DNA of 64,000 nucleotides from an uncultured Candidatus Obscuribacterales bacterium. GTDB lineage: Bacteria > Cyanobacteriota > Vampirovibrionia > Obscuribacterales > Obscuribacteraceae. Position 1 is the first letter of the stretch. Each line of letters begins with the position of its first letter. A program made the translations under genes and the position numbers. A model generated the notes under the pieces. That model was not told the origin of the DNA. It saw nothing but the letters and a program-made list of their open reading frames with translations, and did not search any database. The stretch spans positions 2,003 to 66,002 of the forward strand of contig CAZBOX010000002.1 in the NCBI GenBank assembly GCA_964493595.1, given 5' to 3'. Of the stretch, positions 5,820 through 51,159 are shown one piece after another.

Positions 5820-6485
5820 TCAGGCTTTGGACGGCTTGTCGTACTTGAGCGAGACGGGGTCGAAAATGACCACGTCTTGCGCCGCCAGTGTCTTGCCGGG
5901 AGCCCAGCTGTTGAACGCGTCCTTGGTCACGCCCCAGTTGCCGTGATGGAAACCGGTGACGTCATAAGGACGCGACAAGATGTAGGCTTTGCAGGTCATG
6001 GCGATCTGTCGAGCCTGCCTGTAGAGTTCTGTTAGATCATCGCGGGTTGCGACCATTCCTTGCGGAACCGGATCGCTGCCGCGTTCGATTCTGTGGATGC
6101 GGTAGCCCGACCAGAAGTCGAGCTTCTCCATCTGCAAGAGCGAAACGTCTCCATCGACAACGAGCAAAAGATGATCCGGAATTTTCACACCGAACGTCTT
6201 TTGAAGACGAATCAACGCCGTGGCCTGATCAATCAGCATGCCCGGGTCGTCCAGCTTGAATACGAGTTTTTCGTCCAAGCTAAACCACACACGCACACGA
6301 GTGACGTCATCACGGTGATGATACTTCTTCGGCTCGTCATAAACGAGGCGCCAGCCATTTTGCATGAAAACGGAGGCGGAAATGCCGGGGCGTTCTTCCT
6401 GCTTGAGCAGGCCGAATGTCAGGTCATCCTGCCTGCGCGCCGCAATGAGAGAAGCTTTGTTCTCCCCTAAATTGACTTCAGACAT
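5820..6485 (-). CDS. Hypothetical protein at the distal end of the GC-rich Ter block
   Basis: 221-aa frame from ATG 6485 (MSEVNLGENK...) with a GAGG-type RBS. GC-rich codon usage matches its neighbours. I recognise no motif. The maximal ORF extends to 6530. Confidence 0.6.
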   Translation of the reverse strand: MSEVNLGENKASLIAARRQDDLTFGLLKQEERPGISASVFMQNGWRLVYDEPKKYHHRDDVTRVRVWFSLDEKLVFKLDDPGMLIDQATALIRLQKTFGVKIPDHLLLVVDGDVSLLQMEKLDFWSGYRIHRIERGSDPVPQGMVATRDDLTELYRQARQIAMTCKAYILSRPYDVTGFHHGNWGVTKDAFNSWAPGKTLAAQDVVIFDPVSLKYDKPSKA

Positions 6486-6560
6486 ATAACCTCTATTTGG
6501 TTTCGATGAGGGTGGAAGGAGGCACCGCACGTGGTGCCTCCTTCCCGGAAGGACCGACCC

Positions 6561-7067
6561 TTACTTCGGGTCGATCATCGATACTGCGGCGTCGGTGAGC
6601 TGACCGTCGTCACCGTCCGCCTGAGGCACCGACCGCACGTTGGCCCGTTTGGCCGTGGCGAAGTGAGCCTCGGCGCGAACGATCATCGCTTCGGCCTGCT
6701 CGGTCATCTCGTCGATGACCACCGGCAGGTAGCTGACCGCCGCTTCCTGATTGATGCCGAACTGCTTCATCACCGTCTGGGCGATGGCTTGCGCGGCACC
6801 GGCCAGGCTGGCGATCACCTTTTCGAGTTCGCTGCGCTTGGTCGGCAGGGGCATGGAAAGCGTCTGGACATTGAAGCCCATCGACTGGCACGCCGTGCTG
6901 AGAATGGCCCCGGCCTGTTTGGCGAGCGCCAGACCCACCAGCGCTTCGCCGGCGACGACTTTGTTTTCGCTCTGCACCAGCACCATGCCTTCCTTGAAGG
7001 GTTCCAGCCGGTCGGCCAGTCCCTTCAGGCGAAGGAAGCGCTCGTCGAGCTTCGGTTTGAGTGACAT
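6561..7067 (-). CDS. Hypothetical helical protein
   Basis: 168-aa ORF, Ala/Leu/Glu-rich and predicted helical. No recognisable motif. It does not resemble TerB by eye. Confidence 0.55.
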   Translation of the reverse strand: MSLKPKLDERFLRLKGLADRLEPFKEGMVLVQSENKVVAGEALVGLALAKQAGAILSTACQSMGFNVQTLSMPLPTKRSELEKVIASLAGAAQAIAQTVMKQFGINQEAAVSYLPVVIDEMTEQAEAMIVRAEAHFATAKRANVRSVPQADGDDGQLTDAAVSMIDPK

Positions 7068-7190
7068 AGTTTTACTCCCAATTTCTGAAGCGCGCCTGAG
7101 CGCGCTCCCTTATATCGAGTCGCACATTAAGCGCCCCGAGCGCCGGGAATACCGGCTGTGGATTTGGAGCAGAGCCTGGTGGCCCTGCGG

Positions 7191-7505
7191 TCAGCGGAAG
7201 AGAACGGCGTGCCCGCCCCGCTTCAGCGAGACGATGCCGACCACCGCAAAGATGATGGCGATAGCGGCCGAGACAAGCAGCCGGATCTCGTCGGCAGGCA
7301 CCAGCCCGGTGAAGGGACCGATCATGCAGATGAAGGAAGCGCAGCCGATGAAGTAGGCGGCCGGCGGAGCGTAGATGTGCATGCGCGGGACGCTGCGCAC
7401 CGACTGCGGGATGGAGATCATCGTCGCCCAGATGCCGGCAGTGGCCATGGCCAGCGTCGGAATGGCGATGAGGAGGAGGGCGAAGGGGAGATCGAAGAGC
7501 GACAT
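7191..7505 (-). CDS. Small integral membrane protein (about 3 TM)
   Basis: 104-aa ORF with hydrophobic segments LPFALLLIAIPTLAMATAGIW, AAYFIGCASFICMIGPF and LLVSAAIAIIFAVVGIV. Confidence 0.55.
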   Translation of the reverse strand: MSLFDLPFALLLIAIPTLAMATAGIWATMISIPQSVRSVPRMHIYAPPAAYFIGCASFICMIGPFTGLVPADEIRLLVSAAIAIIFAVVGIVSLKRGGHAVLFR

Positions 7506-7594
7506 GGTCAGCTCCTTATGGTTGGGGCGTACTTGTTAGCCCCGGGTTGCGGGACGGAGCGCGGTTGCGCTCCACGCAGAAGTGAAGCCAGGCA

Positions 7595-8638
7595 TCAAGC
7601 CTGGCTCACAATCGTCCTGGTCTTGCGGTTGAAACGGATGCCCGTTTTCGGCTCGGGGATGTCTTCAGGAGTCGCCGTCCCTGCGGCCAGGCGAATCGCC
7701 CAGTAGGGAAGCAGAACTCCTGTGAAGATGCCCCAGTGGATGCCGCCGGCCATGCGAGCATTGATTTCCAGCAAGAAACGCGTGCCGTCGTCACCTTCCA
7801 GAAACTGCACGTTGTACAGTCCGGAAAGCCCAAGTAGCTCAGTCAAAGCTTTCGACTGCTCTACCAAGTCCGGGCAGTCCTCGAGGAGTTCCTCGATTCC
7901 GCCGGGAAACTTCACGCGGGTTACGGCTTTGACGAGCACGCCGTCTTCTGCCAGGCAGTCGACGCTGTACTCGGGACCGTTCAGATACGGCATCACCATC
8001 ATCTCGGGCAGCGGCGAGCCTTCCGCCACCAGGTAGGCGCGAGCATCAGGCATGGTGAGCGGCTTGAAGTCGCCGTTGTGCGCATGCGGATACTGGTCGC
8101 CCAGGTCGGAGACGATGCGGAACCCGTGCCCGCCCAGTCCTTTGACCGGCTTGAAGCAGAGGGTCTGGAAGCGCTCGCGGTAAGCCTTGAGAGCTTCCAT
8201 TACTTGCTCGATGTCGGCGGCAAGCGTGTAAGGCGGGATCTCGATACCCAGTCCGCCGGCCTCGCGCACCACGTCGTAGAGCTCTGACTTGCTCTTGAGC
8301 AGGCTGATGGTGGCGGCATCGCCGGCGACCAGCACCTTGCACCCGAGGGCGGCGAAGCGATCTTGAGCAGCGGAGAGCGCGATCGTGTAGCTGTGCGGAA
8401 TCAGCACATCCACTTTCTCGCGCGCCGCGAATGCCAGAGCCCATTCGACGTAGGCTGCGGCATTGCCGGTCGGCTCGACCTGGAAGAAGTCGGCTACCTC
8501 AGCGACGGGCGCTTCGGCATTGGCGTGCGTACAGATGATGCGCATCTCTTCGCCGTCTGCCAGGGATTGTCGAATTCCCTTGATCAGATGGACCGTCTGC
8601 GACAGTCCGCGATTGAACCAGACAGTGATCTTTTTCAT
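7595..8638 (-). CDS. ATP-grasp enzyme (Ter-associated biosynthetic operon)
   Basis: Start MKKITVWFNRG at 8638 with an AAGGA RBS. ATP-grasp-type C-terminal core YNVQFLEGDDGTRFLLEINARMAGG. The maximal ORF extends to 8698. Confidence 0.85.
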   Translation of the reverse strand: MKKITVWFNRGLSQTVHLIKGIRQSLADGEEMRIICTHANAEAPVAEVADFFQVEPTGNAAAYVEWALAFAAREKVDVLIPHSYTIALSAAQDRFAALGCKVLVAGDAATISLLKSKSELYDVVREAGGLGIEIPPYTLAADIEQVMEALKAYRERFQTLCFKPVKGLGGHGFRIVSDLGDQYPHAHNGDFKPLTMPDARAYLVAEGSPLPEMMVMPYLNGPEYSVDCLAEDGVLVKAVTRVKFPGGIEELLEDCPDLVEQSKALTELLGLSGLYNVQFLEGDDGTRFLLEINARMAGGIHWGIFTGVLLPYWAIRLAAGTATPEDIPEPKTGIRFNRKTRTIVSQA

Positions 8639-8849
8639 TGTTTGTCCTTTACCTAATTGCAGAGCGCCGGTGATGCGCTCCTGAGTTATGCAAGACAACG
8701 AGCGTCATCAAATTGGGCTCGCTCAGCGACCACGCTATAGGCGTCACACAGTCGCTTACTTTTTTGCTGGCGGGCGGTTGCCGAACGCAGTTCCTTTTGC
8801 ATTCGCCCAAAAACAACCGTCCCGCCGTCCTGTATAGACCGCTGTCTGA

Positions 8850-9848
8850 TCAGGCTTCGCGCACGCCGTAGAGGTCGGCGCGCTCGATGATCGCCCGCGC
8901 CCACTTCGTGTGGGTGGTGGGCTCGCACATGCGGCCGTTCATCTTGAAGACGGCGGCGGCGTCCGGCATGAGGATGCGGCGGGCTTCCTCGAGATCGCAG
9001 GCGTCGACGCGGAAGCCCGCTTCGATGAGCCGGATCTGATCCGGATGGATGGCGGTCTTGCCGAAAAGCCCCTGCAGCAGGTCGAGCTCGACTTCCTGCG
9101 CCAGCACCTCCGGGTTGTTGATGCATTCGCAGACGGGCGCGGTCAGACCGAATCCGAAGGGAATGAATTCGCCGGAGAGGCGCTTGATCACCTCGCCGAC
9201 CGGGGTGTCGTAGATGGTGCGGCGCGGGTCGCGGCGGACGCCGACGCAGTGCAGCAGGTCGTTGCCGCCGATGCGCAGCGCCAGGATGCGGTCCTTGGCG
9301 ATGTCGTCGTTCTGGAGGAGGTCACGCAGCTTGCCCATCTCCTTGGCGTTGAAGACTTCCTTCGTCTCCAGGGTGGGCATCAGCTTGAAGGGATCCTTCT
9401 CGGTGAGCATGGCCAGGTAACGGGGCATCGAGGCGGCCGTGATCTTCGGAAGGACGAAGCCGTCGACGTGCTGGATGCCGCGCATGCGCACGCACTTGCC
9501 GAGCACCTCGGGGTTGCGCACGCGGATGAAGCGCATCGGCTTTTCCGGACCGTCTTCGAAGAGCTTGAGCGCCTTGCCGAGGTTGTTGATCGCGAACTGC
9601 AGCTCGTCGACGCGGACGGCGTCCTCGAGGCAGAAGATGACGGAGCGCAGGAAGGGGTACTTCTGCCCGTTGGCGATGGCGACGATGTTTTCGACCGGCT
9701 GGGTGCAGGGCACGTACATGCTGGCGCCCAGGTGGATCTGCGAGCGGTTCTGATTCATTTGTGCGTTTCCTTTGATGTGGAGCGCATCGGCGTGCGCCCC
9801 GAAGTTAAGTTGAGAGAGGTAGGCGGCGAGTCTTTGTGATTCGCTCAT
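8850..9848 (-). CDS. HpcH/HpaI aldolase / citrate lyase beta-like enzyme
   Basis: Family-like segments GASMYVPCTQP, IFCLEDAV and LALRIGGNDL. An alternative start at 9758 (MNQNRS) has a better AAGGAA RBS. Confidence 0.8.
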   Translation of the reverse strand: MSESQRLAAYLSQLNFGAHADALHIKGNAQMNQNRSQIHLGASMYVPCTQPVENIVAIANGQKYPFLRSVIFCLEDAVRVDELQFAINNLGKALKLFEDGPEKPMRFIRVRNPEVLGKCVRMRGIQHVDGFVLPKITAASMPRYLAMLTEKDPFKLMPTLETKEVFNAKEMGKLRDLLQNDDIAKDRILALRIGGNDLLHCVGVRRDPRRTIYDTPVGEVIKRLSGEFIPFGFGLTAPVCECINNPEVLAQEVELDLLQGLFGKTAIHPDQIRLIEAGFRVDACDLEEARRILMPDAAAVFKMNGRMCEPTTHTKWARAIIERADLYGVREA

Positions 9849-9858
9849 GGCGCCGTTC

Positions 9859-18063: not shown

Positions 18064-18648
18064 TTACTCGACGGCGATGCCGTAGTTGCCGCAGAGCGCC
18101 GCCAGGCCGCCGTCGTAGCCCTGACCGACCGCGTTCATCTTCCACTCGCCGTTGTGGTTGTAGACCTCGGCGAAGATCATGGCGGTGTTGGTCGAGGCGT
18201 CCTCGGACAGGTCGAAGCGCGCCAGCTCGGTGCCGTCGGCTTCGTTGATGATGCGCACGAAGGCGTTGGTGATCTGGCCGAAGGACTGGCCGCGCTCGGC
18301 CGCTTCGTGGATGGTGACCGCGACCGCGATCTTCTTGATGTCGGCCGGGACCTTGGTCAGGTCGATGTCGATCACCTCGTCGTCGCCGTCGCCCTGGCCC
18401 GTGGTGTTGTCACCCTGGTGCACGACGGAGCCGCAGGCCGACTTCTTGTTGCCGTAGAAGACGAAGTCGCCCTCGCTGCGGGTCTTGCCGGCGTCGGTGA
18501 GCAGGAACGCCGAGGCGTCGGCGTCGAACGGCTTGCCGTCGGTGACGCGCGCGTCCCAGCCGAGGCCGACCTTGATGTTCTTCAGACCGGCGGCGCCGGC
18601 GGACTTCGTGAGGGAGACCTTCTCGCCCTTCTTCAGTGAAATAGCCAT
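18064..18648 (-). CDS. terD: TerD (calcium-binding TerD-domain stress protein)
   Basis: [44 protein letters not shown] and [25 protein letters not shown]. Confidence 0.95.
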
Positions 18649-18707
18649 GGTGTTTTCTCCTTGAGCCCATCTAGGGCCGATTGAGTTGAATTGCGTCGAG
18701 ACGCAGG

Positions 18708-18731
18708 GGCGAGCCCGGGATTGGGCTCGCC
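18708..18731 (-). other. Intercistronic 9-bp stem-loop
   Basis: GGCGAGCCC gggatt GGGCTCGCC. Confidence 0.45.
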
Positions 18732-18785
18732 TCCTGCTGATGGAGAACGTGGGTCAGAAGACCCGAGACTGGCGGACGCCGGCGC

Positions 18786-19370
18786 TTAGCCGACGGCGAT
18801 GCCGTAGTTGCCGCAGAGGGCCGCCAGACCGCCGTCGTAGCCCTGACCGACCGCGTTCATCTTCCACTCGCCGTTGTGGTTGTAGACCTCGGCGAAGATC
18901 ATGGCGGTGTTGGTCGAGGCGTCCTCGGACAGGTCGAAGCGCGCCAGCTCGGTGCCGTCGGCCTCGTTGATGATGCGCACGAAGGCGTTGGTGATCTGGC
19001 CGAAGGACTGCCGACGCTCCTCGGCTTCGTGGATGGTGACGGCGATGGCGATCTTCTTGATGTCGGCCGGAACCTTGGTCAGGTCGATCTTGATCGTCTC
19101 GTCGTCACCATCGCCCTGACCCGTGGTGTTGTCGCCCAGGGACTCGACGGCGCCGCAGGCCGACTTCTTGTTGCCGTAGAAGACGAAGTCGCCCTCGTTG
19201 CGGGTCTTGCCGGTATCGGTGAGCAGGAACGCGGAGGCGTCGGCGTCGAACGGCTTGCCGTCGGTGACGCGGGCGTCCCAGCCGAGGCCGACCTTGATGT
19301 TCTTCAGGCCAGCGGGACCGGCGGACTTGGTGAGGGAAACCTTCTCGCCTTTCTTCAGGGAAACGGGCAT
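18786..19370 (-). CDS. terD: TerD (second copy of the tandem pair)
   Basis: Start [15 protein letters not shown] at 19370. Same motif set as 18064..18648. The maximal ORF extends to 19460. Confidence 0.95.
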
Positions 19371-19483
19371 GGTGTCTTTCTCCTTTGGTGCCTCGGCGAT
19401 TGCGCCTGAGGCGGGTTTGGTGCGTTGAATGACGAGCCGAGCCGCAAGCACTCGCTGCAACTCGACAGGTGATATACGAGATG

Positions 19484-19519
19484 GAGGGAAGCCGAACTCT
19501 CGCAGAGCCGGCTTCCCTC
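19484..19519 (-). other. Intercistronic 11-bp perfect stem-loop
   Basis: GAGGGAAGCCG (19484-19494) pairs with CGGCTTCCCTC (19509-19519). Confidence 0.5.
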
Positions 19520-19550
19520 TCAGGCAGACGCGGACTGGCAGCCGGGCTGC

Positions 19551-20276
19551 TTAGTCGTCGAGGGCCTTCTCGAGGATCTGCTTGGTGGTCAGACCGACGC
19601 ACTCGTCGACGGTCAGGCAGTTGACGCAGTCGAAGGCGGCGCCCTTCTTCTCGAGACCGTTGTTGAGGTTCTCGAGGAAGCGGGTGGCGTTGGCGTCCTT
19701 GCCGGTCTGGATGAACGAGAAGCCGATCCTGTCGCGACCGTAGCCGGCGGCCTTCAGGCGCTTGGTGGCATCGATGATCACCTTCTCCAGGGCGGCCTGA
19801 CCGCTGCTGGCAGACGGCTGACCGTCGGTGATGACGACGAAGATGCGCGGCTTGACGTTCGGGTTGGCCGGAACGGCCGGGATGTCCGGCGTGCCCTTGC
19901 TGAAGAAGCCGCCCTTGGTGCCCTTGACGCCGGGCTTGCCGAGCAGCTGGTCGAGGTAGTCGTCGACGCGCGCGCCGATGGCCAGAGCGTGGTCGGTGCC
20001 GTTGCCGTTGGCGCGGGCGGCCGCCAGGACCTTCTGCGCCTTGGCGTCGGTGGTGTTCTCGTTCAGGTCGTGCAGCGAAGTGTCGAAGCACCAGACGGTG
20101 ATGCCGTCCGCGTCGACTTCGCCGGCTTCCTTGATGAGCAGGCTGATCGTCTTCTTGCTGTCGTCCAGACGCGAGAGACCGGTCGGCGTGTCGCGCTCGC
20201 CCATGGAGGCGGAGGTGTCGAGGCCGGCTTCGATGTCGTACTTGGAAAGGTCGCGCTTCTTGAGGCTGAGAGCCAT
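19551..20276 (-). CDS. terY: TerY-like von Willebrand factor A (vWA) protein
   Basis: 241 aa. MIDAS-like LDTSASMG. Embedded among terD genes. AGGAG RBS. Confidence 0.85.
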   Translation of the reverse strand: MALSLKKRDLSKYDIEAGLDTSASMGERDTPTGLSRLDDSKKTISLLIKEAGEVDADGITVWCFDTSLHDLNENTTDAKAQKVLAAARANGNGTDHALAIGARVDDYLDQLLGKPGVKGTKGGFFSKGTPDIPAVPANPNVKPRIFVVITDGQPSASSGQAALEKVIIDATKRLKAAGYGRDRIGFSFIQTGKDANATRFLENLNNGLEKKGAAFDCVNCLTVDECVGLTTKQILEKALDD

Positions 20277-20444
20277 ATTGCAATCTCCTGTTTTTCGCTT
20301 GTAGCGATGGGTTAGAGCCGAGGCGTTCTGGATGATCCAGATGACGCCCCGGCCGAACGAACCGGCCGCGAGGAATTCGCTGCCGGCTATGGATGATCGA
20401 TGTTCAGGCGCGCTTTGCGCACCTCAACCGTTGGGAAGCGGCTG

Positions 20445-21044
20445 TTACTCGGCGTCGACGCCGTAGCGCCCGCACAGAGCGAGCAGACCGCCGTCATAGC
20501 CCTGACCGATGGCGTCGAAGCGCCACTCGCCGTCCTTGCGGTAGACGGCGCCGAAGTCGAGGGCGGTGTTGGTCGAGGCTTCCTCCGAGATGTCGAAGCG
20601 GCAGAGCTCGGTGTTGTCCTCGGCGTTGACGACGCGGATGAAGGCGTTGGTCACCTGGCCGAAGGACTGACCGCGTTCCTTCGCCTCGTGGATGGTCACG
20701 GCGAAGACGATGCGCTGGACGTCGGCGCCGACCTTGGTGAGGTCGATTTTCAGCGACTCATCGTCGCCGTCGCCCTGACCGGTCAGGTTGTCGCCGGTGT
20801 GCTCGATGGAGCCGTCCTTGGTCTTGAGCTTGCCCTCGAACTTCTCCATTCCGTAGAACACGAAGTCCTGGTTCTGGTTGCGCACCTTGCCGTTGGCGCC
20901 CAGCACGAAAGCGGAGGCGTCCAGGTCGAAGGCCTTGCCGGATGTCGCGCGCGTGTCCCAGCCGAGACCGACGACGATCTGCTTGAGGCTGGGAGCTTGC
21001 TTGGTGAGAGAGATCTTCTCGCCCTTTTTCAGGGAAATCGGCAT
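20445..21044 (-). CDS. TerD-family protein (first gene of the array)
   Basis: [43 protein letters not shown] and KDGEWRF. AAGGAG RBS. Confidence 0.9.
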   Translation of the reverse strand: MPISLKKGEKISLTKQAPSLKQIVVGLGWDTRATSGKAFDLDASAFVLGANGKVRNQNQDFVFYGMEKFEGKLKTKDGSIEHTGDNLTGQGDGDDESLKIDLTKVGADVQRIVFAVTIHEAKERGQSFGQVTNAFIRVVNAEDNTELCRFDISEEASTNTALDFGAVYRKDGEWRFDAIGQGYDGGLLALCGRYGVDAE

Positions 21045-21183
21045 GTGTGTTTCTCCTTGGCGCTTTTAGCGCATTTGGTTTGCAGCGTGGGACGAGTGGT
21101 CTGTTCGTCCACGCGACTGTTGCACCAGAAGCGATGAGCTGCCGGTGCGACTGGAGACAAGCGCGAATGAACTGCGTTTCCTG

Positions 21184-21214
21184 ACTCAAGTTGAGATAGC
21201 TGTCTCAGTTGAGT
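21184..21214. promoter_or_regulatory. Pair of short palindromes upstream of the terD array
   Basis: CTCAAgTTGAG (5-1-5) and CTCAgtTGAG (4-2-4) lie 19 bp apart, 140-170 bp upstream of the 21044 start. Confidence 0.3.
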
Positions 21215-22847
21215 AAGACTTGCGAGCATCGCGCCGATTGCGTAGAACGCGAAAACCCCAACCCCTGATTTCGGTCAACTGCTTCGGATTTGAGTCAACG
21301 GTCTCGCCTCATTCCTTGCGGAATGGGTTGGCGGCGAAAGCGATGAGTTCAATAGGCGAAGTGGCTGGTTATTTCCGAAATCAAAGAGGCAAAAGAGGTA
21401 CTTCCCGATTATGCAGAGCGGCGGACGGGAAAACCTCCTGGTCTGCTCCGCATATTGCGGTTCATATACATTTCCAGAGCTGAAATGTCAGACCTTTCTA
21501 TGGTGCCGCACCCCTCTTGACTTCCGCGGTTTCGCCGGCTTGATTTCTGGGGGATCTGTGGCTGCAAAATGCCAGCTGCTGTGGCTTGCCGGGTAGTCAA
21601 GATGAGCGTCCTTACATATTGATTGCTACTCATAATCGGACCTTTCTCTCTGCTACCTAGCGCTGGTCTCGGCACTAGCCTGCAGAGTGCCTGCACTGTT
21701 TGAGTTCTATCTAATTGTTGAAAGCCTGATCTTAAGCGCGTCTAAGCGATGTCAAGCGGGATGGCGCTGCTCGCTCAAACACACCACCTGTGGTGCACGA
21801 TATATGAGCGCCGGTTAAGTTTGCTGTGGGCAAAAAGTTGCGAAAAATTTCGGCATCGATCTCAACAAAACGTACCAGAAAATACACTTCGAGATAGGAG
21901 CCGAGCTAAGGCTAATAGCCCATTTCCAATCAGGGAAGAGTGGTTTGGAGCCACTTATTAACAGGCTTCTTCGCCCGTAAGTAGTACTGAAACAGATGAA
22001 GATCAGAAGGAGATAGTTATCTCAGCTTTCAAAAGATCAGATATAGATCTGATCGAGTTGTTTGTGAACCCAACGAGCTAGCTGGTCACCCGGCACTTTC
22101 GCCAGACTGCGCTAGTACTGATCTGTCGCTTTAATTTCCGACACAAAAGCGAACTGATGGTTTTTTGCATTCCCGCAATGGCTGTGCTGCACTCTGATTT
22201 CAGAATCGGAGCGAGGCTAGCGCAAGTTGATGCAAACCGCCTGTCGATGCGGATTGTAAGTCCGTGCTTAAACTTCCTCTTGGCAGCCCGGGCGTTCTTA
22301 ACTCTATGAAGAATGTTTGTTGCTCTCTAGCTACATCATTTCCTTGTAAATGCCGACGCGTCTGGTTTTTGCCAAAATCGGCAAGGCGGGGTGGGCGGCT
22401 GTCTGTCACCATATTTGGTGCATATCCGAAGCTGAGCAGGTTTCGGTTTTTGAAGAACGTAAAGTACTTGTGGCGCGATTGGCGCAGGGACCAGTTTTTC
22501 TTTCGAATTTCATGATCAACTTCCAACCTGCATTCAGTCCGGTCCGAAAGCCGACTGCTGTGTGCTCAATGCGGCATTGCGTCTGTGTCTGAAGAATATT
22601 TCGTTTGCCGAAGGCTCTGCGTTTTCGACAATGTAAGGTCCTTACCTCTTTTACCTCATTAGAAGACCCGCCTCTCCGCTACAGCGCGAAAACAATCGTC
22701 AGATCAGTCGCTTTTCACTCTTCGAAGAGAGTCGATGCAGATTTGCTCTGCATAAGAGGTACGGTCACCCATTTGCTTCACGGAAGTTATCGAGGACAGC
22801 GTGTCCTTTGAACTTCGTCATTACTTCACTCAAGGTGAAAGCAGATT

Positions 22848-24158
22848 ATGAAAACACAGACAAACGCCACCACCTCCACCGACCCATTCCGCTCCCTTGT
22901 CGAGTCGGAATTCTCCAAGCTGCTCAATCGCTTGAGCCGCCGCCTTCTCATCGTCGGGGATTTCGGCAAGGACCTGGACGATGAAGATACTGTCCTTTTC
23001 CTCACCGGTGAGCAGCGGCATCGTCGCCAGACGCAGCTGGAATTTTTCAGCACACCCGGCTCACGTAAGCAGGATTTGTTCGAGCTCAAGGCTGTGATCG
23101 CCAATCTGCCTCCGCCGGTCAAGCGCGCCCAGCTCGCCAAAGGAACGCTCAAGCTGCTCGGACAGCCCAATGTTCCGGTCGGCATCGGCACGGACTGCAG
23201 GAATAGCCCGGATGGTCATGACCATGAGTTCGCCAAAGTCACTTACATGGCCGACGAATCCGAGTTGGAGGACGGTCGCGAGCTCTTGGTCCGTACCTTG
23301 AAAGACGCCGAGGACGGGAGCATCACGCTGGTGCTCATCTCCGGCATGACCGACATCGCGGCCATTTTGCGCGAGCATTCCGACCTGGTCAAAGCCAAGG
23401 TGGAATCCGTTGCCATCATGGGCGGCGTCGAGGTCGAGAAAGGCACCAACAAAGTAGTCATCGACAAGGATGGCTTCATGGTGCCGGACTCCGCCGCCAA
23501 CAACAAGTTCGACATGGAGTCGGCGATCTACACGTATCGCCGCCTGCAGGAGCTGAACATTCCGCTCGTGATTCTCACTCGCGCTGCCGCTTACGCGTGC
23601 AAGGTGCCGCGTTCCTTCTATGACGAACTGGCAGCTACCGGTCACCCGGTCGGCATCAAGCTGCGTGACTCCCAGCAGGGCTCGATCGAGGCCCTCTGGC
23701 AGAAAGTGAACCTGCCGGTAGGCCATGAAGGCCGCGCCAAGATGCCGGAACGTCTCAACCGTGAATGGTTCTGCGACACTTTCTGCGCCGGCAAGGGCAA
23801 GGACCGCACCGGCGAGGACAGCATCTGGGACCTCATCCAGTCGTTCAACCTCTACGACCCGATGACTCTCATTGCCGCCGTTCCTGAACTTCGCGAGCGC
23901 TTCTACGACCCGACGGTCGTGAAGGTCGGCGAGACCGAGCACCTGATCATCGGCGTCTGCGATGCCGTCCCCGGTGTGAAGGACCCCGAGGCGCTGGCGG
24001 ACTATATGCTCAAGCGCTGCCTCCTGTCGCTCACGATGAGCTTGGACGAACTGCCGCGCGTGTACCGCGACGAAAAGCTGGTCGGACGCGAGGAGCAGCC
24101 TGCGTGCCCCCCTCCGAAGAGCGAAGCGACTGCTGCCGGCGACACCGATAAGTCGTAG
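22848..24158 (+). CDS. Nucleoside hydrolase-like (IUNH-fold) protein with N- and C-terminal extensions
   Basis: LLIVGDFGKDLDDEDT (compare the N-terminal Asp cluster DxDxxxDD), ISGMTDIAAIL, VAIMGG, PDSAANNKFD and YDPMTLIAAV match the order of IUNH family landmarks. Confidence 0.65.
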   Translation: MKTQTNATTSTDPFRSLVESEFSKLLNRLSRRLLIVGDFGKDLDDEDTVLFLTGEQRHRRQTQLEFFSTPGSRKQDLFELKAVIANLPPPVKRAQLAKGTLKLLGQPNVPVGIGTDCRNSPDGHDHEFAKVTYMADESELEDGRELLVRTLKDAEDGSITLVLISGMTDIAAILREHSDLVKAKVESVAIMGGVEVEKGTNKVVIDKDGFMVPDSAANNKFDMESAIYTYRRLQELNIPLVILTRAAAYACKVPRSFYDELAATGHPVGIKLRDSQQGSIEALWQKVNLPVGHEGRAKMPERLNREWFCDTFCAGKGKDRTGEDSIWDLIQSFNLYDPMTLIAAVPELRERFYDPTVVKVGETEHLIIGVCDAVPGVKDPEALADYMLKRCLLSLTMSLDELPRVYRDEKLVGREEQPACPPPKSEATAAGDTDKS

Positions 24159-24265
24159 AAATCGACTATTTGTGTCGCCTCTGGAGCCGGGTGCAAAAAG
24201 CACTCGGCTCTTTCGGGAGTCGAATAAACTCCCTTCGCATCTGAATTCATGAGAAGGAAAAGAAT

Positions 24266-24712
24266 ATGGGTGCACTGATGTTTTGCGTCTTCTACTGCCT
24301 GGGCATGTTCCTGCTCACGGCAGTGGTGGGCATCAACTACACAACGGCTGCCGGTGTCGTCGCCTGTTTTCTGGTGACGAGTGCAGCTTTAGGAGCCACG
24401 GACTTGGCTCTCTACCTGGTTCGCGGTCCTTTCAGCCGCTTCTTTCAAGCGCTGCTGCGTGCGCGCGAGCTGGGAGCGTTGCTCATGCTGCTGTTTCTCT
24501 TTGCAGTGATTGGCAGCATCACGGGTGGAGTCATCTGGGGCTGGGCTAGCCTCGCCCCTCAGGCGTTCGACTCGAATCCAATGGCCGTCGGTGAAGCGTT
24601 TCGGCTGGGTTTCTCAGCAGCTCTTCTCATCGGCTTTCTCGCTTTCATAGGATTCCCCAACCGGTTCTCCGAACTGGCCAAATTGGCAGAGCGCTACAGC
24701 CCCCGGCAGTAG
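24266..24712 (+). CDS. Integral membrane protein (about 4 TM)
   Basis: 148 aa with four hydrophobic helices. Same strand and composition as its neighbours. Confidence 0.6.
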   Translation: MGALMFCVFYCLGMFLLTAVVGINYTTAAGVVACFLVTSAALGATDLALYLVRGPFSRFFQALLRARELGALLMLLFLFAVIGSITGGVIWGWASLAPQAFDSNPMAVGEAFRLGFSAALLIGFLAFIGFPNRFSELAKLAERYSPRQ

Positions 24713-24872
24713 GCTTAGTCGATTCGGTATCAGACCCGGCTGGCAGCCCATTTTGCTCAGCCGTCTTTCAGTTTCCGTTGCATGCTGTCGCATGCGACCG
24801 ACAAGACTTCGTCGCCCACCGGCTGGTCGGGAGCGACACAACCCGCCTCTTACGAGGCACAAGGAGCACACA

Positions 24873-25595
24873 ATGCAAGTCAAGAACGCTTTCGGACTGG
24901 AAATCATCGTCGACGGACGCGCCCTTCCCCTCATTCAGCAGGGCGGTAAGACCTATGTCGCCGCTCCCTGGGACAAGGACTTCCAGCTGCGTCTCAACGT
25001 CCCTTACGACGGCGGCCGCTATCTGGCGGTCACCTCGGTGGACGGTCTGGACATCATGACCGGCAAGACTGCGTCCAAGGATGCAGGCGGCTATGTGGTC
25101 ACGCCGGCTTTCTCCGCCGCCGCCAACGACATTCCCGGTTTCCGCCTCAACAACAGCGAGGTGGCCGCGTTCCACTTCGGCGACCGCCGGGACAGCTACG
25201 CGGCTCAGCTCGACAAGCCGGCCAATGTCGGCGTGATCGCGGTCGTCTTCTACGAGGAAGATCGTCCGCGCCGGCACGTGCTCTCGATGAGCCCGCGCAG
25301 CGGCTGCCTGGGCGGCGGTCTGGAAGGCAACACCCGCGGCGGCACTTTCGGTCCCGCCACCAGGGGTAGTGTCGGTCACGACATGGGCACCGAGTTCGGC
25401 CAGCGCACCGAGCACAAGGTGACGACGACCCAGTTCCGGCGCGGCCGTGAAGTGGCGCGTTTCGTCATCGAGTACGCGTCGCGCGAAAGCCTTGTCCAGG
25501 CGGGCATCATTCGGTCCGCTCCTCTCGGCGAGGTCGACCCGTTTCCGGCCGACAACGAGCCCGGCTGCAAGCCTCCGAAGGGCTGGCGCGGTTAA
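24873..25595 (+). CDS. Hypothetical protein (beta-rich N-domain, Gly/Arg-rich middle)
   Basis: Start MQVKNAFGLEIIVDG at 24873, preceded by AAGGAG at 24861. The maximal ORF starts at 24753. No motif recognised. Confidence 0.65.
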   Translation: MQVKNAFGLEIIVDGRALPLIQQGGKTYVAAPWDKDFQLRLNVPYDGGRYLAVTSVDGLDIMTGKTASKDAGGYVVTPAFSAAANDIPGFRLNNSEVAAFHFGDRRDSYAAQLDKPANVGVIAVVFYEEDRPRRHVLSMSPRSGCLGGGLEGNTRGGTFGPATRGSVGHDMGTEFGQRTEHKVTTTQFRRGREVARFVIEYASRESLVQAGIIRSAPLGEVDPFPADNEPGCKPPKGWRG

Positions 25596-42871: not shown

Positions 42872-43477
42872 TCACTTCGTCCGCTTGAGCAGCCGGACGA
42901 AGTAATTGAGGTGCGGAAAACGGATGCGCGAGACCATAAGGACCGACGCAACCGCAGCGAAAGCCAGGATGGCATAGGCGACTACAGTGGATGCGAATGC
43001 TCCGTAGGTGAAGACGCCCAGGGCCACCACAGTCGCCGCTCCGGTGGAGGGCAAACCGCTGAACCATAGATGCGCGTCCTCGGAGTGATCGCCGGTCTCC
43101 ACGTTGAAGCGCGCCAGCCGATAGACCGCGCAGCCCACGTAAAGCACACCAGCGATCCAGAGCAGCGGTGTGAGAACGGCGCCGTTCAGGAATTGGAACA
43201 GCACCACGGCCGGTGCAATGCCGAAGCTTACCGCATCGCAGAGCGAGTCGAGATTGGCGCCCAGGTCGCTGGTGACGCCGATGGTGCGGGCGACCCGACC
43301 GTCGAAAGCGTCGAAGACCATAGCCAGAAAGATCAAGCCGGCACTGACCGCAAGCAGGTGCGGCTGAGTGCTGCTCAGGATGGCGCAGATAATCGCTGAG
43401 AAGCCGCAAATGGCGTTGCCCAGCGTGAACATGTTCGGAATACTGCGTTTGACCTTGGCTCGTTTTTGTCCAGGCAT
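42872..43477 (-). CDS. pssA: CDP-alcohol phosphatidyltransferase (phosphatidylserine synthase-like)
   Basis: Start MPGQKRAKVKRSIPNMFTLGN at 43477. Signature DAFDGRVARTIGVTSDLGANLDSLCD. The maximal ORF extends to 43837. Confidence 0.85.
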   Translation of the reverse strand: MPGQKRAKVKRSIPNMFTLGNAICGFSAIICAILSSTQPHLLAVSAGLIFLAMVFDAFDGRVARTIGVTSDLGANLDSLCDAVSFGIAPAVVLFQFLNGAVLTPLLWIAGVLYVGCAVYRLARFNVETGDHSEDAHLWFSGLPSTGAATVVALGVFTYGAFASTVVAYAILAFAAVASVLMVSRIRFPHLNYFVRLLKRTK

Positions 43478-46795: not shown

Positions 46796-47686
46796 TCAGT
46801 CGACATATGTTCCACGGGGCGGCTCCTGCGCACCCATGGCACCGAACCAGCGGTCGTAGATGCGCCGCCAGGTGCCGTCCGACTTCATCTGCACCAGCAC
46901 GGCATTGACGAAGCGAACGAGGTCCGCCTGGTCACGCGAGATGCCGATGCCATAGGGCTCGGACGTGAAGGCCGTGCCGACGACGCGAGCGAACGGGTCC
47001 TGGCGAGCCAGTCCCGCCAGAATCACGTCATCCGTGCTGATGGCGTCCACCTGCCGCATCTGGAAGAGGACCAGGCAGTCGGTGAACTCGGTGGTCTCGA
47101 CCAGAATCGCCTGGGGATTGGCGGCGACGATATTCTTGGCGCTGGTAGAGCCGCGCGGCGCGCAGACGCGACGTCCGGAGAGATCGGCGATGGACCTGGC
47201 CGTCGAGTCTCGGTGCACGAGAATCTTCTGGCCGGCCATGTAGTAGACCTCACTGAAGTTGATGTCGTTCTTGCGCTGGGCGTTGATGGTGAAGGTCGAG
47301 ATGACCATGTCCACGCGCCCTTGCTGGATCAGCGGAATGCGGTCCGCCGACGCCACCGCGACGAACTGGATGCGGCGCTCGTCACCGAAGATCGCCCTGG
47401 CCATGGCCTTGGCGATGTCGATGTCGAAGCCCTCCAGCTCGTTGGTGAGCGGGTTGAGATAGCCGATGCCGTACTTGTCCTGCGAAACCCCGACGATCAG
47501 GCGCCCGCGCTCCTGAATACGGCGCATGGTGCTGCCGTCCGGCATGGCTCCTGGGCGCGGCAGGCTAACCATGGGGCGCAGGCTGGCGGTCACATCGGGC
47601 GTCGCGGACGCGCTGGGGGAAACGGCGAGGAAAGCGGTGAGCGCGATGGCGCCCAGTGCCTTGAGCATGGTGTTGAAAGCTCTCAT
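46796..47686 (-). CDS. glnH: Family 3 solute-binding protein, GlnH-like (amino-acid binding)
   Basis: Signal peptide MRAFNTMLKALGAIALTAFLAVSPSASA. SBP_bac_3-like GFDIDIAKAMA and ISTFTINAQR. GGAGA RBS. The symbol is inferred from synteny with pknG. Confidence 0.8.
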   Translation of the reverse strand: MRAFNTMLKALGAIALTAFLAVSPSASATPDVTASLRPMVSLPRPGAMPDGSTMRRIQERGRLIVGVSQDKYGIGYLNPLTNELEGFDIDIAKAMARAIFGDERRIQFVAVASADRIPLIQQGRVDMVISTFTINAQRKNDINFSEVYYMAGQKILVHRDSTARSIADLSGRRVCAPRGSTSAKNIVAANPQAILVETTEFTDCLVLFQMRQVDAISTDDVILAGLARQDPFARVVGTAFTSEPYGIGISRDQADLVRFVNAVLVQMKSDGTWRRIYDRWFGAMGAQEPPRGTYVD

Positions 47687-47702
47687 CTCTTCTCTCCTGC
47701 GG

Positions 47703-49070
47703 TTAGACGCGGTATTCATTGATGCGGGGCGTCAGACCGAAATAGGTCAGCGCCGCCACGAGCATTGCGATCAGCACGAACGCCCAATCCAGAAAACGCA
47801 GGTTGCCCTCGGCGCTCGCGATGGAGGCGTCGAAGTTGGCTTGCGCTCGGCCGAGGTTGACGCTCAGAACTTCGGTGAAGTTGTCGAACGCCTGCTGTGC
47901 TTCGGTGGTGCCGTTGCCGAGAGCGAGATTGACTGCCTCCTGGCGACGACCGCCCTTGTCGAAGCTGCGGATGCGAGCATCCTGCTCCAGGTAGGAACGC
48001 AGCGCCGTGAGCGCAGTGACCACCTGTTGGCGCTCCGGTGAACCGGCCGGCGTAGCCGCCAGTTCGTTGGCGAAGAGTCCCTGGAAGGCGACATTGCCAC
48101 GCGACGCTTGGAAAATCATCTCCTGCGTCAGATCGGAAGGAGCAAGACGAGCGACCTTGTCCTTCATGCTCGTCTCATAGCGGGCGCCGGCGCCAAGCGC
48201 GATCAGATAGAGGCTCTGGTCTGTCTTGGTGTCATAGGCGGTGCCGCGTGCCGTCAGCCAGTTATAGGCAGACGCGAAGGACTGCTCACGAGCGGAGGAG
48301 AGATGACCCCCTGCCCAGCCCATGCTCACAACGCTGTAACCGGTCACGGCGACAACGAGCGCCGATGCGGCCACGAGAGGTGCGTTGAAAGTGCGCCGCA
48401 TGCGCTTGCTCAGGAAGAGCTGCATGTAGCAGAGCACGAGAAGCAGCGCCGCGCCGCCGCCGCCGATCAGAGCGAAGCGCATCATCGTTCCGCTCTTGAA
48501 GGAGGCGTACTCGCTGTCCAGCTGGCGGACGTTGAGCTGGTCGATCGACTGCGTGAGCGGCAGCATGGTGTCGTGCAGCATGACCGACGCCATGCGCAGG
48601 TAGGCGGCGCCCACCGGGTAACCCATGCGGTTGTTGGTGCGTGCCGATTCCACCATGCCTGTGTAGACCGTCACGTGGTTCATCAACTGTTCGATAGCGG
48701 TCTGCTCTTCGCGACCGAAGCTGATGTTCATGGCCGCCGAGGTGAGTTGCTCGCCCAGTTCGCGACGAACCGTTTCGTACCTCTGGCGGGCCGCTGCACC
48801 GGAGTCGGCGCCACCGGCCAGGAATTCCTGCGTGGCGAGCGCATCCATCTCCAGCAACTTGACGCGCACGGTCTGCGCCGTGACGATGCTGGGAACCGCG
48901 TCACGGGCGATGGTGTTGAGCGACGAACGTGCCGCGGTGACGCCCAGATAGCCGCCGATGGCAAAGCCGACGGCAAGCAGGAAGACGAGTGCCATGCCGA
49001 GGCGCAGCTTGCCGGGTGTGGTCGAGGTCAGCCCTCGGACTCCGCTGGCGGTGTTGAGAGTGGTTGTCAT
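47703..49070 (-). CDS. glnX: GlnX-like four-TM protein with two extracytoplasmic helical domains
   Basis: 455 aa. TM segments near residues 25-47, about 215-235, about 245-265 and the C-terminus, separated by helical regions. Assignment rests on topology plus glnH/pknG synteny only. Confidence 0.6.
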   Translation of the reverse strand: MTTTLNTASGVRGLTSTTPGKLRLGMALVFLLAVGFAIGGYLGVTAARSSLNTIARDAVPSIVTAQTVRVKLLEMDALATQEFLAGGADSGAAARQRYETVRRELGEQLTSAAMNISFGREEQTAIEQLMNHVTVYTGMVESARTNNRMGYPVGAAYLRMASVMLHDTMLPLTQSIDQLNVRQLDSEYASFKSGTMMRFALIGGGGAALLLVLCYMQLFLSKRMRRTFNAPLVAASALVVAVTGYSVVSMGWAGGHLSSAREQSFASAYNWLTARGTAYDTKTDQSLYLIALGAGARYETSMKDKVARLAPSDLTQEMIFQASRGNVAFQGLFANELAATPAGSPERQQVVTALTALRSYLEQDARIRSFDKGGRRQEAVNLALGNGTTEAQQAFDNFTEVLSVNLGRAQANFDASIASAEGNLRFLDWAFVLIAMLVAALTYFGLTPRINEYRV

Positions 49071-49089
49071 TCTAGATCCCTTCTCGCGG

Positions 49090-49752
49090 TCAGAGATTGA
49101 TGGAGGAGATGATGACGACGGTGAATTCGCCGATGCGAATCTTGTCGCCCACGGCAAGCTCGCGCTCTTCGCCCGAGCTCAGCGCCTTCACGACGCCGTC
49201 GCGTTCGACTTCGGTGCCGTTGGCGGAATCGAGGTCGCGGACGGTGACCTTGTCGGCATGCCGGGTGATCATCATCTGGCGGCGTGAGATGCTCTCGTCG
49301 CCGTCGATGGTCAGGCTCAGCACAGCCTTGTTGTTGGGACGACCGATCAGCGACTCCTCATCGAAGAGTGAGTGCTTGCGCGGGCGCCCGCCGTTGACGA
49401 TCACTTCCACATCGATGCGCGCGTTGCCGGACGGCACCACAGGCGGTGCGGCGACCGCGGGTGCGGGCGTGGACTGCGGCACCACCGGGTCGGCAGGAGG
49501 CACTTCGCCGCCCGTCCGGTTGACGAAGTCGTAGCCGCAGACCCCGCAGAACTGAGCGGTGCCGTCGCGGTGTTCACTGCACTTGGGGCACTGCTCGGCG
49601 GACGCGGAGGCGCCGGCGGCCGGCTGCGCTTGTCCCGCAGGCAGAGCGGAGGCGGGTGTGGAGGCGCCGCCGGCAATCTGAGAACCACAGTCGGAGCAAT
49701 AGTCGGCATCGACCGACTCATGCCCTTGCGGGCACTTGTGCGTTGCAGTCAT
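49090..49752 (-). CDS. FHA-domain protein with two N-terminal zinc ribbons
   Basis: CPQGHESVDADYCSDCG and CPKCSEHRDGTAQFCGVCG, then a Pro/Ala linker. FHA core LIGRPNN...ISRRQMMI...VRDLDSANGTEV. Confidence 0.85.
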   Translation of the reverse strand: MTATHKCPQGHESVDADYCSDCGSQIAGGASTPASALPAGQAQPAAGASASAEQCPKCSEHRDGTAQFCGVCGYDFVNRTGGEVPPADPVVPQSTPAPAVAAPPVVPSGNARIDVEVIVNGGRPRKHSLFDEESLIGRPNNKAVLSLTIDGDESISRRQMMITRHADKVTVRDLDSANGTEVERDGVVKALSSGEERELAVGDKIRIGEFTVVIISSINL

Positions 49753-49796
49753 TGTAATGACCTTTCCAGTTGAATTGGGCTCGATTGATGCGGCTC

Positions 49797-51095
49797 TTAC
49801 TTGACGCGCTTGGTGCGGGTGCTGGCCGTGTCGAGGTTGACGACGTCACCCTTGTCGGCGCCCTTGATGATCTTCACGGTGCCCTTGTCGGGGTCGACCT
49901 TGATGATCTTGTCGATGCGCCGCGTCGCTTCTTCGTTGCCGGTGGCGACCGCCAGTTCGCGCGCCTTGCCCAGGGCTTTTGTGGCCTTGTCCTCGTCGCC
50001 CGCTTGCAGCGCGGCCACGCCTTCCTGGATGTTGCGCGCCAGGTCGGCCTGCCCGGTATAGTTGGCGACCTTGGGGTTGATCACCGTCGACTTCTTGTCG
50101 TCGCCGGTCCATTCGGCCGTGATCTGACCGCCCTCCATGAGCTTGGTCTCGACCTCGGTGCCGTTCTGGTTCTCGACCAGCGACAGGCGCGCCACCAGCT
50201 TGGCCGGACCGTCGACCTGACCGACCGCTTCGGGCGCCAGTTCCACGACCACCATGTAGTCCCGCACTTCCTCGCCCCAGGCGCCGGTGTCGATGCGAGC
50301 CAGGCGCGGGGTGGCGCCGGGCTGCACCTTGCCGGTGAGGTCGAGCAGCTGCGGAGTCATCTGCTTGATCGAGGAGACCTTGGCGCCGACAGGCGTCCAG
50401 ACCTGCAGCATGACGTTGCTGCGAGCCAGGCTCTGGGTGCGCTCGACCACCGCCTTGAAGTCGGCGATCAGCTCTTCCGGCTTCTGGAAGCCGTCCACCG
50501 AGCCGCCCAGATAGTTCTGGATGGTGCGCAGTTCTTCGGGCTTGTAGCCGGCGCCGACGCCGCGCCCTTCCACCTCGAACTGACCGACGCAGTTCTTCAG
50601 CTCACGCTCGAGGGTGGGCACGTCCTCGCCCTCGTTCTTGCCGTCCGTGAGGAAGGTGAGGATGTTGATGGCGCCGGGCACCTTGGCGAACTGAACCCGC
50701 GCGCCGCTGAGCCAGCGCGCGAAGTAGGTGCCGCCGCCGTTGTTCATCTCGGAGAGCAACTTGAGGGCGGCACGCTTGTTGACGGCGTTGGCGATGGTGA
50801 CCGGGACGACGAAGTCGGCGCTGTCACCGCCACGCACGACGAAGAAGTAGGTATTGCCGTCCTCCGGCAAGTTCTCGACGGCCTTGAGCACCGCCTGCTT
50901 GGCGAAACGCCACTTCTCGCCGTCCATGGAGCCGGAGGCGTCGATGACGAAGCCGAGCGTGCGCTTCTGCGCCACGACAGCTCCCGCCGCGCCCGGCGAA
51001 TTGGACTTGATCGAGACCACGGCCACGACCGAGTTGGCGCCGGCGGTCAGGTACTTGTTGTGGGAGATGCTGCCTTCGAAGCTGGACTGGGACAT
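49797..51095 (-). CDS. vWA-domain protein (TerY-like, kinase/phosphatase-associated)
   Basis: Start MSQSSFEGS at 51095. MIDAS motif FVIDASGSMDG. The maximal ORF extends to 51176. Confidence 0.85.
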   Translation of the reverse strand: MSQSSFEGSISHNKYLTAGANSVVAVVSIKSNSPGAAGAVVAQKRTLGFVIDASGSMDGEKWRFAKQAVLKAVENLPEDGNTYFFVVRGGDSADFVVPVTIANAVNKRAALKLLSEMNNGGGTYFARWLSGARVQFAKVPGAINILTFLTDGKNEGEDVPTLERELKNCVGQFEVEGRGVGAGYKPEELRTIQNYLGGSVDGFQKPEELIADFKAVVERTQSLARSNVMLQVWTPVGAKVSSIKQMTPQLLDLTGKVQPGATPRLARIDTGAWGEEVRDYMVVVELAPEAVGQVDGPAKLVARLSLVENQNGTEVETKLMEGGQITAEWTGDDKKSTVINPKVANYTGQADLARNIQEGVAALQAGDEDKATKALGKARELAVATGNEEATRRIDKIIKVDPDKGTVKIIKGADKGDVVNLDTASTRTKRVK

Positions 51096-51159
51096 GAGAT
51101 TTCCTTTCGAGAGTTCAGTGGTTGCACTGGAGAGTTGAAGGGATGAACATCTGGCGCTG

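Follow-up and report, generated by a model that had tools for sequence, protein, structure and literature searches.

A Ter-type gene cluster lacking TerB and TelA on a GC-rich chromosomal block of an uncultured Obscuribacterales bacterium

Background

Tellurite-type (Ter) gene clusters are very widespread and are in use as markers of tellurite resistance, and their biochemistry has been inferred rather than demonstrated. The terZABCDEF/terWXY regions of R478-type plasmids are among the examples of the wider Ter supercluster. Here we analyse a Ter-type block of 17 genes at positions 5820-21044 of a 64,000-nucleotide stretch of DNA, referred to below as the window, from an uncultured Obscuribacterales bacterium of the family Obscuribacteraceae (genome G000, contig C2, positions 2003-66002). 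The genome comprises 6.2 Mb in 406 contigs and is 86.7% complete, with an estimated contamination of 5.45%. An earlier note, made from the letters of the window alone, had described the block as a Ter supercluster and implied that it was a foreign island with a donor.

The architecture of the supercluster has already been described by Anantharaman, Iyer and Aravind (2012). According to PMC11994780, which recounts the model of Anantharaman et al., Ter biosynthetic modules come in forms of two or five genes. In that model a phosphoribosyltransferase (PRTase) and a HAD enzyme are always present, and the five-gene form has in addition an ATP-grasp enzyme, a TIM-barrel enzyme and a further PRTase; a ribonucleoside derived from a pyrimidine is the likely product, and TerB almost always accompanies the module. 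Two described systems are compared here with the window, namely the Ter cluster on the Azospirillum ramasamyi plasmid NZ_CP029830.1, which served as the canonical comparator and was compared by tblastn, and the yceCDEFGH locus of Bacillus subtilis, which encodes three TerD proteins, the TerC-family protein MeeF, YceG and the TelA protein YceH. TerC proteins of the YkoY/MeeY subfamily metalate Mn-dependent exported enzymes in B. subtilis (PMC10550928, PMC13598126).

Results and discussion

Identification of the Ter-type cluster

All 17 open reading frames (ORFs) of the block lie on the minus strand, at the coordinates given in the earlier note, and on the evidence of their sequences they constitute a lineage-specific form of the described Ter stress-response system. 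The block combines a TerD array, a TerC-family membrane protein and a five-gene biosynthetic module; neither this module nor the linkage of TerD, TerC and vWA genes is new, both being part of the published supercluster. Pfam matches were counted at the gathering cut-off, and NCBIfam, Rfam, PADLOC-DB 2.0 and PDB profiles were searched in addition. The four TerD paralogues score 185-271 bits against a Pfam cut-off of 25.3 and are also recovered by a genome scan, and TerC, with 165 bits for the Pfam family, reaches 220 bits with TIGR03716 (YkoY), for which the cut-off is 138.5. Four enzymes of the five-gene small-molecule operon likewise exceed their Pfam cut-offs. The HAD-type enzyme gives a weak profile score, and its assignment is accepted because it occupies the HAD slot of the canonical module and is 40% identical to the Azospirillum gene at the same position. 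Profile searches, which the earlier note had proposed as a check, thus bear out its calls of TerD, TerC and enzyme domains. Successive enzyme genes overlap in ATGA start/stop signals, the HAD start lying on the PRTase stop (11693-11696) and the StiP start on the HAD stop (10935-10938).

The cluster of the Azospirillum plasmid resembles the block in its tandem TerD paralogues, vWA gene and TerC, and in the order of its enzymes (PRTase-TRSP, HAD, StiP-PELOTA, HpcH-like lyase, ATP-grasp); its TerD proteins and enzymes are 40-64% identical to those of the window, with terD3 reaching 64% against a TerD encoded on an Azospirillum plasmid. The plasmid cluster holds three TerD genes, a 423-aa TerA-like protein, TerB, TerC, two vWA genes, TerY-C, PP2C and a kinase, and is flanked by insertion sequences (IS), whereas the window cluster is chromosomal and without IS flanks. 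Domain searches support the earlier statement that TerA, TerB and TelA are missing from the block. Its four TerD proteins are single-domain proteins of 184-199 aa, with no TerA-type member of ~400 aa comparable to the two-domain protein of the plasmid; no PF05816 (TelA) match was found in the block or elsewhere in the 86.7% complete genome; and Pfam detected neither the kinase nor the phosphatase of the TerY-P triad in the block, which also differs from the plasmid in having no TerY-C. The two TerC proteins are of different types, YkoY/MeeY in the window and Alx on the plasmid, and give no tblastn match to each other, and the window vWA gene is not orthologous to the TerY genes of the plasmid. 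In turn, the block adds CC639, TM102, TM104, U168, U236 and a micropeptide to the plasmid arrangement.

The B. subtilis locus shares with the block the succession of a TerD array and a TerC-family membrane protein, and B. subtilis YkoY (MeeY) belongs to the same TerC subfamily as the window terC; the window differs in having the five-gene biosynthetic module and in lacking TelA. The yybP-ykoY riboswitch was not detected by Rfam upstream of terC, either in the window at the gathering threshold or in the terC upstream region at E <= 1. The features that distinguish this variant of the system are a YkoY/MeeY-type TerC, a five-gene module without TerB, CC639, lineage-restricted partners and two leaders without an Rfam match.

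TerB genes are present elsewhere in the genome, on contigs C7 and C8. The C7 gene (51378-51833; L066:4379-4834) encodes a stand-alone TerB of 151 aa far from the block, adjacent to a ZIP zinc transporter and among unknown genes, and shares 39% identity with TerB from the Azospirillum Ter plasmid.

Conservation, base composition and origin of the cluster

We hold it to be quite likely that the block is a chromosomal Ter-type stress-response supercluster that has been inherited within a subclade of the Obscuribacteraceae (class Vampirovibrionia, = Melainabacteria), is organised in three units and has had its high GC content for a long time. The cluster, its flanks and the high GC recur in at least five other Obscuribacterales lineages, with protein identities of 52-95%. 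The relatives compared for cluster and flanks (L001, L003, L005, L006 and L007/G144) have an identical 16-gene order between common flanks, one end being marked by a T2SS-T3SS_pil_N gene and the other by an IU_nuc_hydro operon, and across lineages identity declines in parallel in the cluster and in the flanks. The genus-mate G144 possesses the full region, with synteny extending across at least 30 kb (74-84% identity of the nucleotides); another genus-mate, G057, has neither the cluster nor the flanking genes. A class-wide count of true PRTase_2 matches found them in 10 of 151 genomes, eight of which are among the 31 genomes of the same family (G000 included) and two in one other family (f7). 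In other genera of the family the Ter clusters are built differently, without CC639, U168 and U236.

As the earlier note had seen, the block is richer in GC than its flanks, with 61.9% GC against 51.1% for the genome. Windowed statistics of the kind suggested there place it in the top 0.2% of 15-kb windows, and the GC content at third codon positions (GC3) of its genes, 0.68-0.95, corresponds to the 92nd to 100th percentile, the genomic mode being 0.50-0.60. The block is thus atypical, yet it is one of 114 segments of at least 58% GC that make up ~8% of the genome length and are spread over many contigs. The genomic GC3 distribution is bimodal, and its second shoulder, ~7% of genes with GC3 of at least 0.70, lies in these segments. 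The orthologous blocks of five other lineages are equally GC-rich and their flanks equally low in GC. At four-fold degenerate sites the GC content is 0.84 in the window block and 0.79-0.86 in the relatives, and four-fold identity declines to 0.52 (L003) and 0.46 (L015), the saturation expectation being 0.38-0.40. By a rough two-state estimate, relaxation to the genomic value from 100% GC would have brought four-fold GC to ~0.64-0.70 by now. The observed values exceed this, which suggests that the high GC of the block is being kept up and is not simply left over, although this argument is not a proof. Codon bias of highly expressed genes was rejected as the cause: GC3 is 0.56-0.65 in EF-Tu, GroEL, L2 and the ribosomal-protein contig, all of which use little G.

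With regard to alternative origins, an ancient acquisition by the ancestor of the family is possible. A recent genomic island from a high-GC donor (proteobacterial, actinobacterial or a Deinococcus plasmid) that has kept no mobility genes, as implied by the earlier note, is in our estimate improbable. Conjugative plasmids frequently carry Ter clusters, which are present in over 2,500 plasmid records, and the nearest named relatives lie on plasmids of Azospirillum, Pseudomonas and Deinococcus, but protein identity to the plasmid versions is 43-64%, and megablast of the block against plasmids gave no DNA match beyond 245 nt. The GC excess with GC3 values up to 0.95 would fit such an import, as would the patchy occurrence in the class; however, four-fold sites have largely turned over with GC remaining high in every lineage, and the cluster and both its flanks are syntenic even where the proteins have diverged to 52-86%. 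In agreement with the earlier note, no tRNA and no flanking integrase or transposase domain was found at the block edges, nor is there a convincing direct repeat; the sole att-type pair (26 nt, 81%, at 6054 and 21310) was judged to be due to chance. Given that cluster, flanks and high GC are shared across lineages with congruent identities, recent import is not supported. Megablast of the flank against E. coli genomes returned nothing useful.

Another reading, also improbable, sees in the cluster chiefly a defence island against phages, of the TerY-P/Ter type, the nucleoside-like product of which would be an antiviral or alarm molecule. Stable synteny over a long divergence is unusual in defence islands, and the TerY-P kinase and phosphatase are not in the block, whereas a kinase/PP2C/vWA cassette and a Nudix/LOG pair within the same window, together with other GC-rich segments bearing conflict-type genes (Fic, a phage GP30.3-like protein and a PD-(D/E)XK nuclease) beside a TerD-domain gene, would suit a role in defence. 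The classical link of Ter operons to phage and colicin resistance, reported in PMC11994780, points the same way. However, the vWA protein, CC639, U168, U236, TerD1, TerD4, TM102, TM104 and the IU_nuc_hydro protein (IUNH) gave no hit in PADLOC-DB 2.0, and a tenth protein, the coiled-coil paralogue of CC639, gave only two weak sub-threshold JetC matches (E 0.004). Finally, a chimeric contig of this metagenome-assembled genome (MAG), for which the 406 contigs and the 5.45% estimated contamination might speak, is refuted as the source of the compositional mosaic to the point of near certainty, since the same pattern of low-GC flanks and high-GC block appears in independent JGI, ENA, Logan and NCBI assemblies with contigs of up to 603 kb.

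Several observations weigh against the inherited Ter-type supercluster that we favour. Pfam finds no TerB domain in any ORF of the block, despite the reported near-constant pairing of TerB with the module. Neither the vWA protein nor TerC is an orthologue of its counterpart (TerY and TerC) in classical operons, so the physical coupling of the published model may differ here. The patchy distribution, with true PRTase_2 matches in 8 of 31 family genomes and none in G057, requires that the cluster was lost in some members of the family or was passed between them. A stable chromosomal cluster that has the full five-enzyme module yet neither TerB nor TelA shows which parts of the system are dispensable. 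For island prediction it also carries a caution, in that a 10-point GC excess and extreme GC3 can persist in vertically inherited genes.

In a family member without the Ter module (G088, C5:372468-376010), a nucleoside-hydrolase-like homologue (48%) lies 1 kb from a GntR-aminotransferase gene (36%), the same two types of gene that bracket the Ter block in the window. This pair could be a remnant of the ancestral junction or a coincidence of paralogues.

The genes terD2 and terD3, which have the highest GC3 of the block (0.92-0.95), share 95% of their DNA sequence along a stretch of 300 nt (18064-18363 and 18786-19085), compared with 76% for terD1; a recent event of duplication or gene conversion among the tandem paralogues is indicated. 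Outside the block the genome contains six more TerD-domain matches and the two TerB matches, all at a local GC of 0.54-0.64, which is above the genome mean. A 20-kb GC-rich segment (C18:11501-31500; L065) encodes PD-(D/E)XK nuclease-like, Fic/DOC, phage GP30.3-like and TerD-domain proteins along with two rhomboid proteases and many unknown proteins, and in appearance resembles a conflict or accessory island.

Predicted organisation and function

Terminator-like hairpins at 15200-15239 and 13733-13753 mark the boundaries of what would be three transcription units (Table 1). For their chemistry, for the sensing of Ca2+ or other metals and for the stress that might trigger the system we rely on the literature on the protein families concerned. 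The first unit (terD1, vWA, terD2, terD3, terD4 and CC639) is likely to specify a cytoplasmic sensor and scaffold set, consisting of Ca2+-binding TerD β-sandwich proteins, a vWA protein dependent on metal at its metal-ion-dependent adhesion site (MIDAS) and a long helical scaffold. The second, terC of the YkoY/MeeY type with the 27-aa peptide, might provide a membrane component for translocation of metal (Mn2+/Ca2+) or for metalation. The third runs from TM102 through the translationally coupled genes for PRTase-TRSP, HAD, StiP-PELOTA, C-C lyase and ATP-grasp to TM104, U168 and U236, and following the published model its enzymes would make a nucleoside-like metabolite from phosphoribosyl pyrophosphate (PRPP). 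In this scheme the PRTase would attach ribose phosphate to a base-like acceptor, the phosphate would be taken off by the HAD enzyme, and the lyase and ATP-grasp enzyme would supply and ligate a carboxylate side group; the lineage-specific membrane and soluble partners might handle, export or perceive the product. In three relatives (L006:13715-15489, L014 and L016) the biosynthetic module is enlarged by another HAD gene and by one or two ATP-grasp genes of divergent sequence (36-41% identity), and these extra copies suggest that the side-group chemistry varies among lineages.

Beyond the coordinates of the earlier note, the divergent operon at 22848-25595 probably belongs with the cluster, which it adjoins in L001, L005 and L007/G144. 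The ORF at 22200-22526 was rejected as a gene, its DNA being conserved across relatives and its reading frame not.

Table 1. Features of the Ter-type cluster and its surroundings, in window positions; the start codons of terD2, terC, HAD, StiP, ATP-grasp and U236 were refined against relatives
Feature	Position	Strand	Description
Conserved non-coding region of ~800 nt upstream of terD1	21045..21843	-	Five- and six-way alignments with long invariant blocks
terD1	20445..21044	-	199 aa, single-domain TerD; Pfam TerD E 1.9e-77; GC3 0.90
vWA protein in TerY position	19551..20276	-	241 aa; MIDAS-type DxSxS...T...D pattern; VWA_2 E 0.005, below cut-off
terD2	18786..19370	-	194 aa; Pfam TerD E 1.5e-79; start placed at 19370
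terD3	18064..18648	-	194 aa; Pfam TerD E 5.5e-81
terD4, divergent TerD paralogue	17383..17937	-	184 aa; Pfam TerD E 1.2e-54
CC639, all-helical protein	15246..17165	-	639 aa; no Pfam family; paralogue of 54654-55958
GC-rich 18-bp hairpin directly 3' of CC639	15200..15239	-	Probable end of first transcription unit
terC, YkoY/MeeY subfamily	14073..14900	-	275 aa; Pfam TerC E 1.4e-48; start placed at 14900
Single-pass membrane micropeptide MQKISGAGFLLLLIIIFLLFSGSNRRR	13873..13956	-	27 aa; kept after terC in six lineages
Conserved leader in terC-TM102 gap	13571..13765	-	Terminator-like hairpin, invariant box, 22-pair hairpin
TM102, small membrane protein	13190..13498	-	First gene of biosynthetic unit; 49-79% in relatives
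PRTase_2 + TRSP phosphoribosyltransferase	11693..12961	-	422 aa; Pfam E 1.6e-63 and 6.1e-24
HAD-type phosphatase	10935..11696	-	253 aa; weak NCBIfam HAD-IIB match, E 2e-4; start 11696
StiP (PRTase-like) + PELOTA	9859..10938	-	Pfam E 1.6e-95 and 2.1e-25; start probably 10938 (listed ORF to 11013)
TIM-barrel C-C bond lyase, HpcH/HpaI-like	8850..9848	-	Pfam C-C_Bond_Lyase E 8.3e-90
Ter-type ATP-grasp ligase	7595..8638	-	Pfam ATPgrasp_Ter E 1.5e-35; refined start 8638 (listed ORF to 8698)
TM104, small membrane protein	7191..7505	-	Invariant motif RMHIYAPPAA
U168, predicted four-helix protein	6561..7067	-	Invariant acidic C-terminal tail SVPQADGDDGQ
U236, α/β protein	5820..6485	-	True length 221 aa; invariant HHGNWG and LLQMEKL motifs; start 6485
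Divergent GC-rich operon	22848..25595	+	Nucleoside-hydrolase-like enzyme (IU_nuc_hydro at cut-off), 4-TM protein, unknown protein

Candidate partners of the cluster

The protein CC639 has an N-terminal module of ~350 aa, behind which a motif of ~45 aa (DKAL..F..KAEEA..G.L..AE....SYETRL.EL) occurs four times, with Pro/Ala linkers between the copies. The earlier note had counted this coiled-coil protein among the novel partners of the cluster. Lineage restriction, as far as sequence comparison goes, applies only to U168, U236, TM102, TM104 and the micropeptide, whereas an exhaustive profile search places CC639 in a large family without Pfam annotation, comprising 1294 representative clusters, mostly of ~400 aa and matching its first ~390 positions. 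Close homologues number ~20, and their carriers in a scan of species-representative genomes are Candidatus Melainabacteria and Obscuribacterales MAGs; contigs on which such homologues lie reproduce the window cluster one gene after another. Comparison of CC639 with PDB and Pfam profiles gave coiled-coil noise only. Its interpretation as a divergent TelA was rejected, the hhalign probability against the TelA profile being 0.3%.

Both members of the CC639 family in the genome of the window lie inside the window. The other one is the head gene of a cassette (46796-55958) coding for a PknG-type kinase, PP2C and vWA-FHA proteins, and shares its first ~390 residues with CC639; four other cyanobacterial genomes, too, have this six-gene kinase/phosphatase/vWA cassette with a ~400-aa form at its head. 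CC639 differs from this head protein in its three extra C-terminal repeat modules and in its position after a TerD array, with no kinase or phosphatase adjacent. By its sequence and placement CC639 is thus a paralogue of the cassette head protein that was recruited to the Ter cluster. Since canonical clusters carry PP2C and kinase genes right after the vWA genes, it is plausible that CC639 joins the TerD/vWA unit with the PknG cassette in trans. In two members of the family (P0088 and P0152) the helical module has an N-terminal fusion to an M48 peptidase or to an adenylate/guanylate-cyclase domain, and these fusions hint that it serves as a sensor or adaptor for different outputs.

In the vWA protein, residues D20/S22/S24, T94 and D151 are invariant across seven homologues, and its profile weakly matches PDB vWA structures (BatB/BatA and 9no5). 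For the earlier designation as TerY-like the evidence is mixed: the MIDAS residues are invariant, the VWA_2 score is below cut-off, and tblastn showed no similarity to either TerY-type vWA gene on the Azospirillum plasmid.

The three small membrane ORFs listed in the earlier note (TM102, TM104 and the 27-aa peptide) are all conserved in relatives; TM102 has no family match in Pfam, NCBIfam or PADLOC. The two proteins which that note could not assign, U168 and U236, belong to families confined to the Obscuribacterales lineage of the window. Their AlphaFold2 (AF2) models have predicted local distance difference test (pLDDT) scores of 74.5 and 64.6, respectively; neither gave a Foldseek match at E < 0.1, and searches against PDB profiles were empty. 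The possibility of a hidden TerB in U168 or U236 was rejected, as hhalign shows no relation. The tail of U168 recalls acidic Ca2+-binding motifs, a resemblance that serves only as a lead. New candidate partners of the Ter system are accordingly a scaffold held in common with a Ser/Thr-kinase cassette, a micropeptide beside TerC and two conserved leaders.

Conserved non-coding regions

The region upstream of terD1 is conserved about equally to coding DNA and contains no conserved long ORF. It includes a promoter-like TTGACA-N17-TAAGAT at 21728-21755, a palindrome GCACC-N6-GGTG at 21782-21796, an invariant inverted repeat TCTTGACT/AGTCAAGA that is unique within the window, local hairpins and a possible upstream ORF of 15 codons (MS[I/S]NQYV..LILTTR). 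In the leader between terC and TM102, the terminator-like hairpin (13733-13753) is accompanied by an invariant 22-nt box, TGTCAAGRAAGNCTCNNGANAG, at 13674-13695 and by a 22-pair hairpin at 13597-13661 with a loop of variable length. In the alignment of this hairpin 93.8% of cells are paired, and double (compensatory) changes affect six pairs, where shuffles give 1.8 (0/500) and slid controls two at most. Eight distinct versions of the leader are seen, and every true copy lies between terC and TM102. Rfam searched at E <= 1 gave no match for either leader, and at gathering thresholds it recognised no family anywhere in the window.

A broader proposal, which we put forward tentatively and with more doubt than conviction, is that the cluster may regulate itself as a signalling unit: the two leaders may be riboregulators sensing the nucleoside-like product of the cluster or a metal, and CC639 may, by way of the shared helical module, physically connect the TerD/vWA sensor with the PknG-kinase/PP2C cassette at a distance of 37 kb. 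In the same tentative vein, the high GC of this and ~100 further accessory blocks is possibly upheld by an active process, of which biased gene conversion would be one example, as a genomic compartment of its own in Obscuribacteraceae.

The palindrome upstream of terD1 is one of eight GCACC-N6-GGTGC sites in the window (6522-6537, 11413-11428, 17244-17259, 21782-21796, 22407-22421, 43201-43216, 49434-49449 and 62808-62822), where GCACC-N6-GGTG is matched 13 times strand-wise, the expectation being 0.6. In the genome the full palindrome has 112 copies, as against 3-15 for any other spacing from 0 to 12, and is present in coding and non-coding DNA alike. It could be an iterated palindrome of the kind of cyanobacterial HIP1 or the site of a global regulator.

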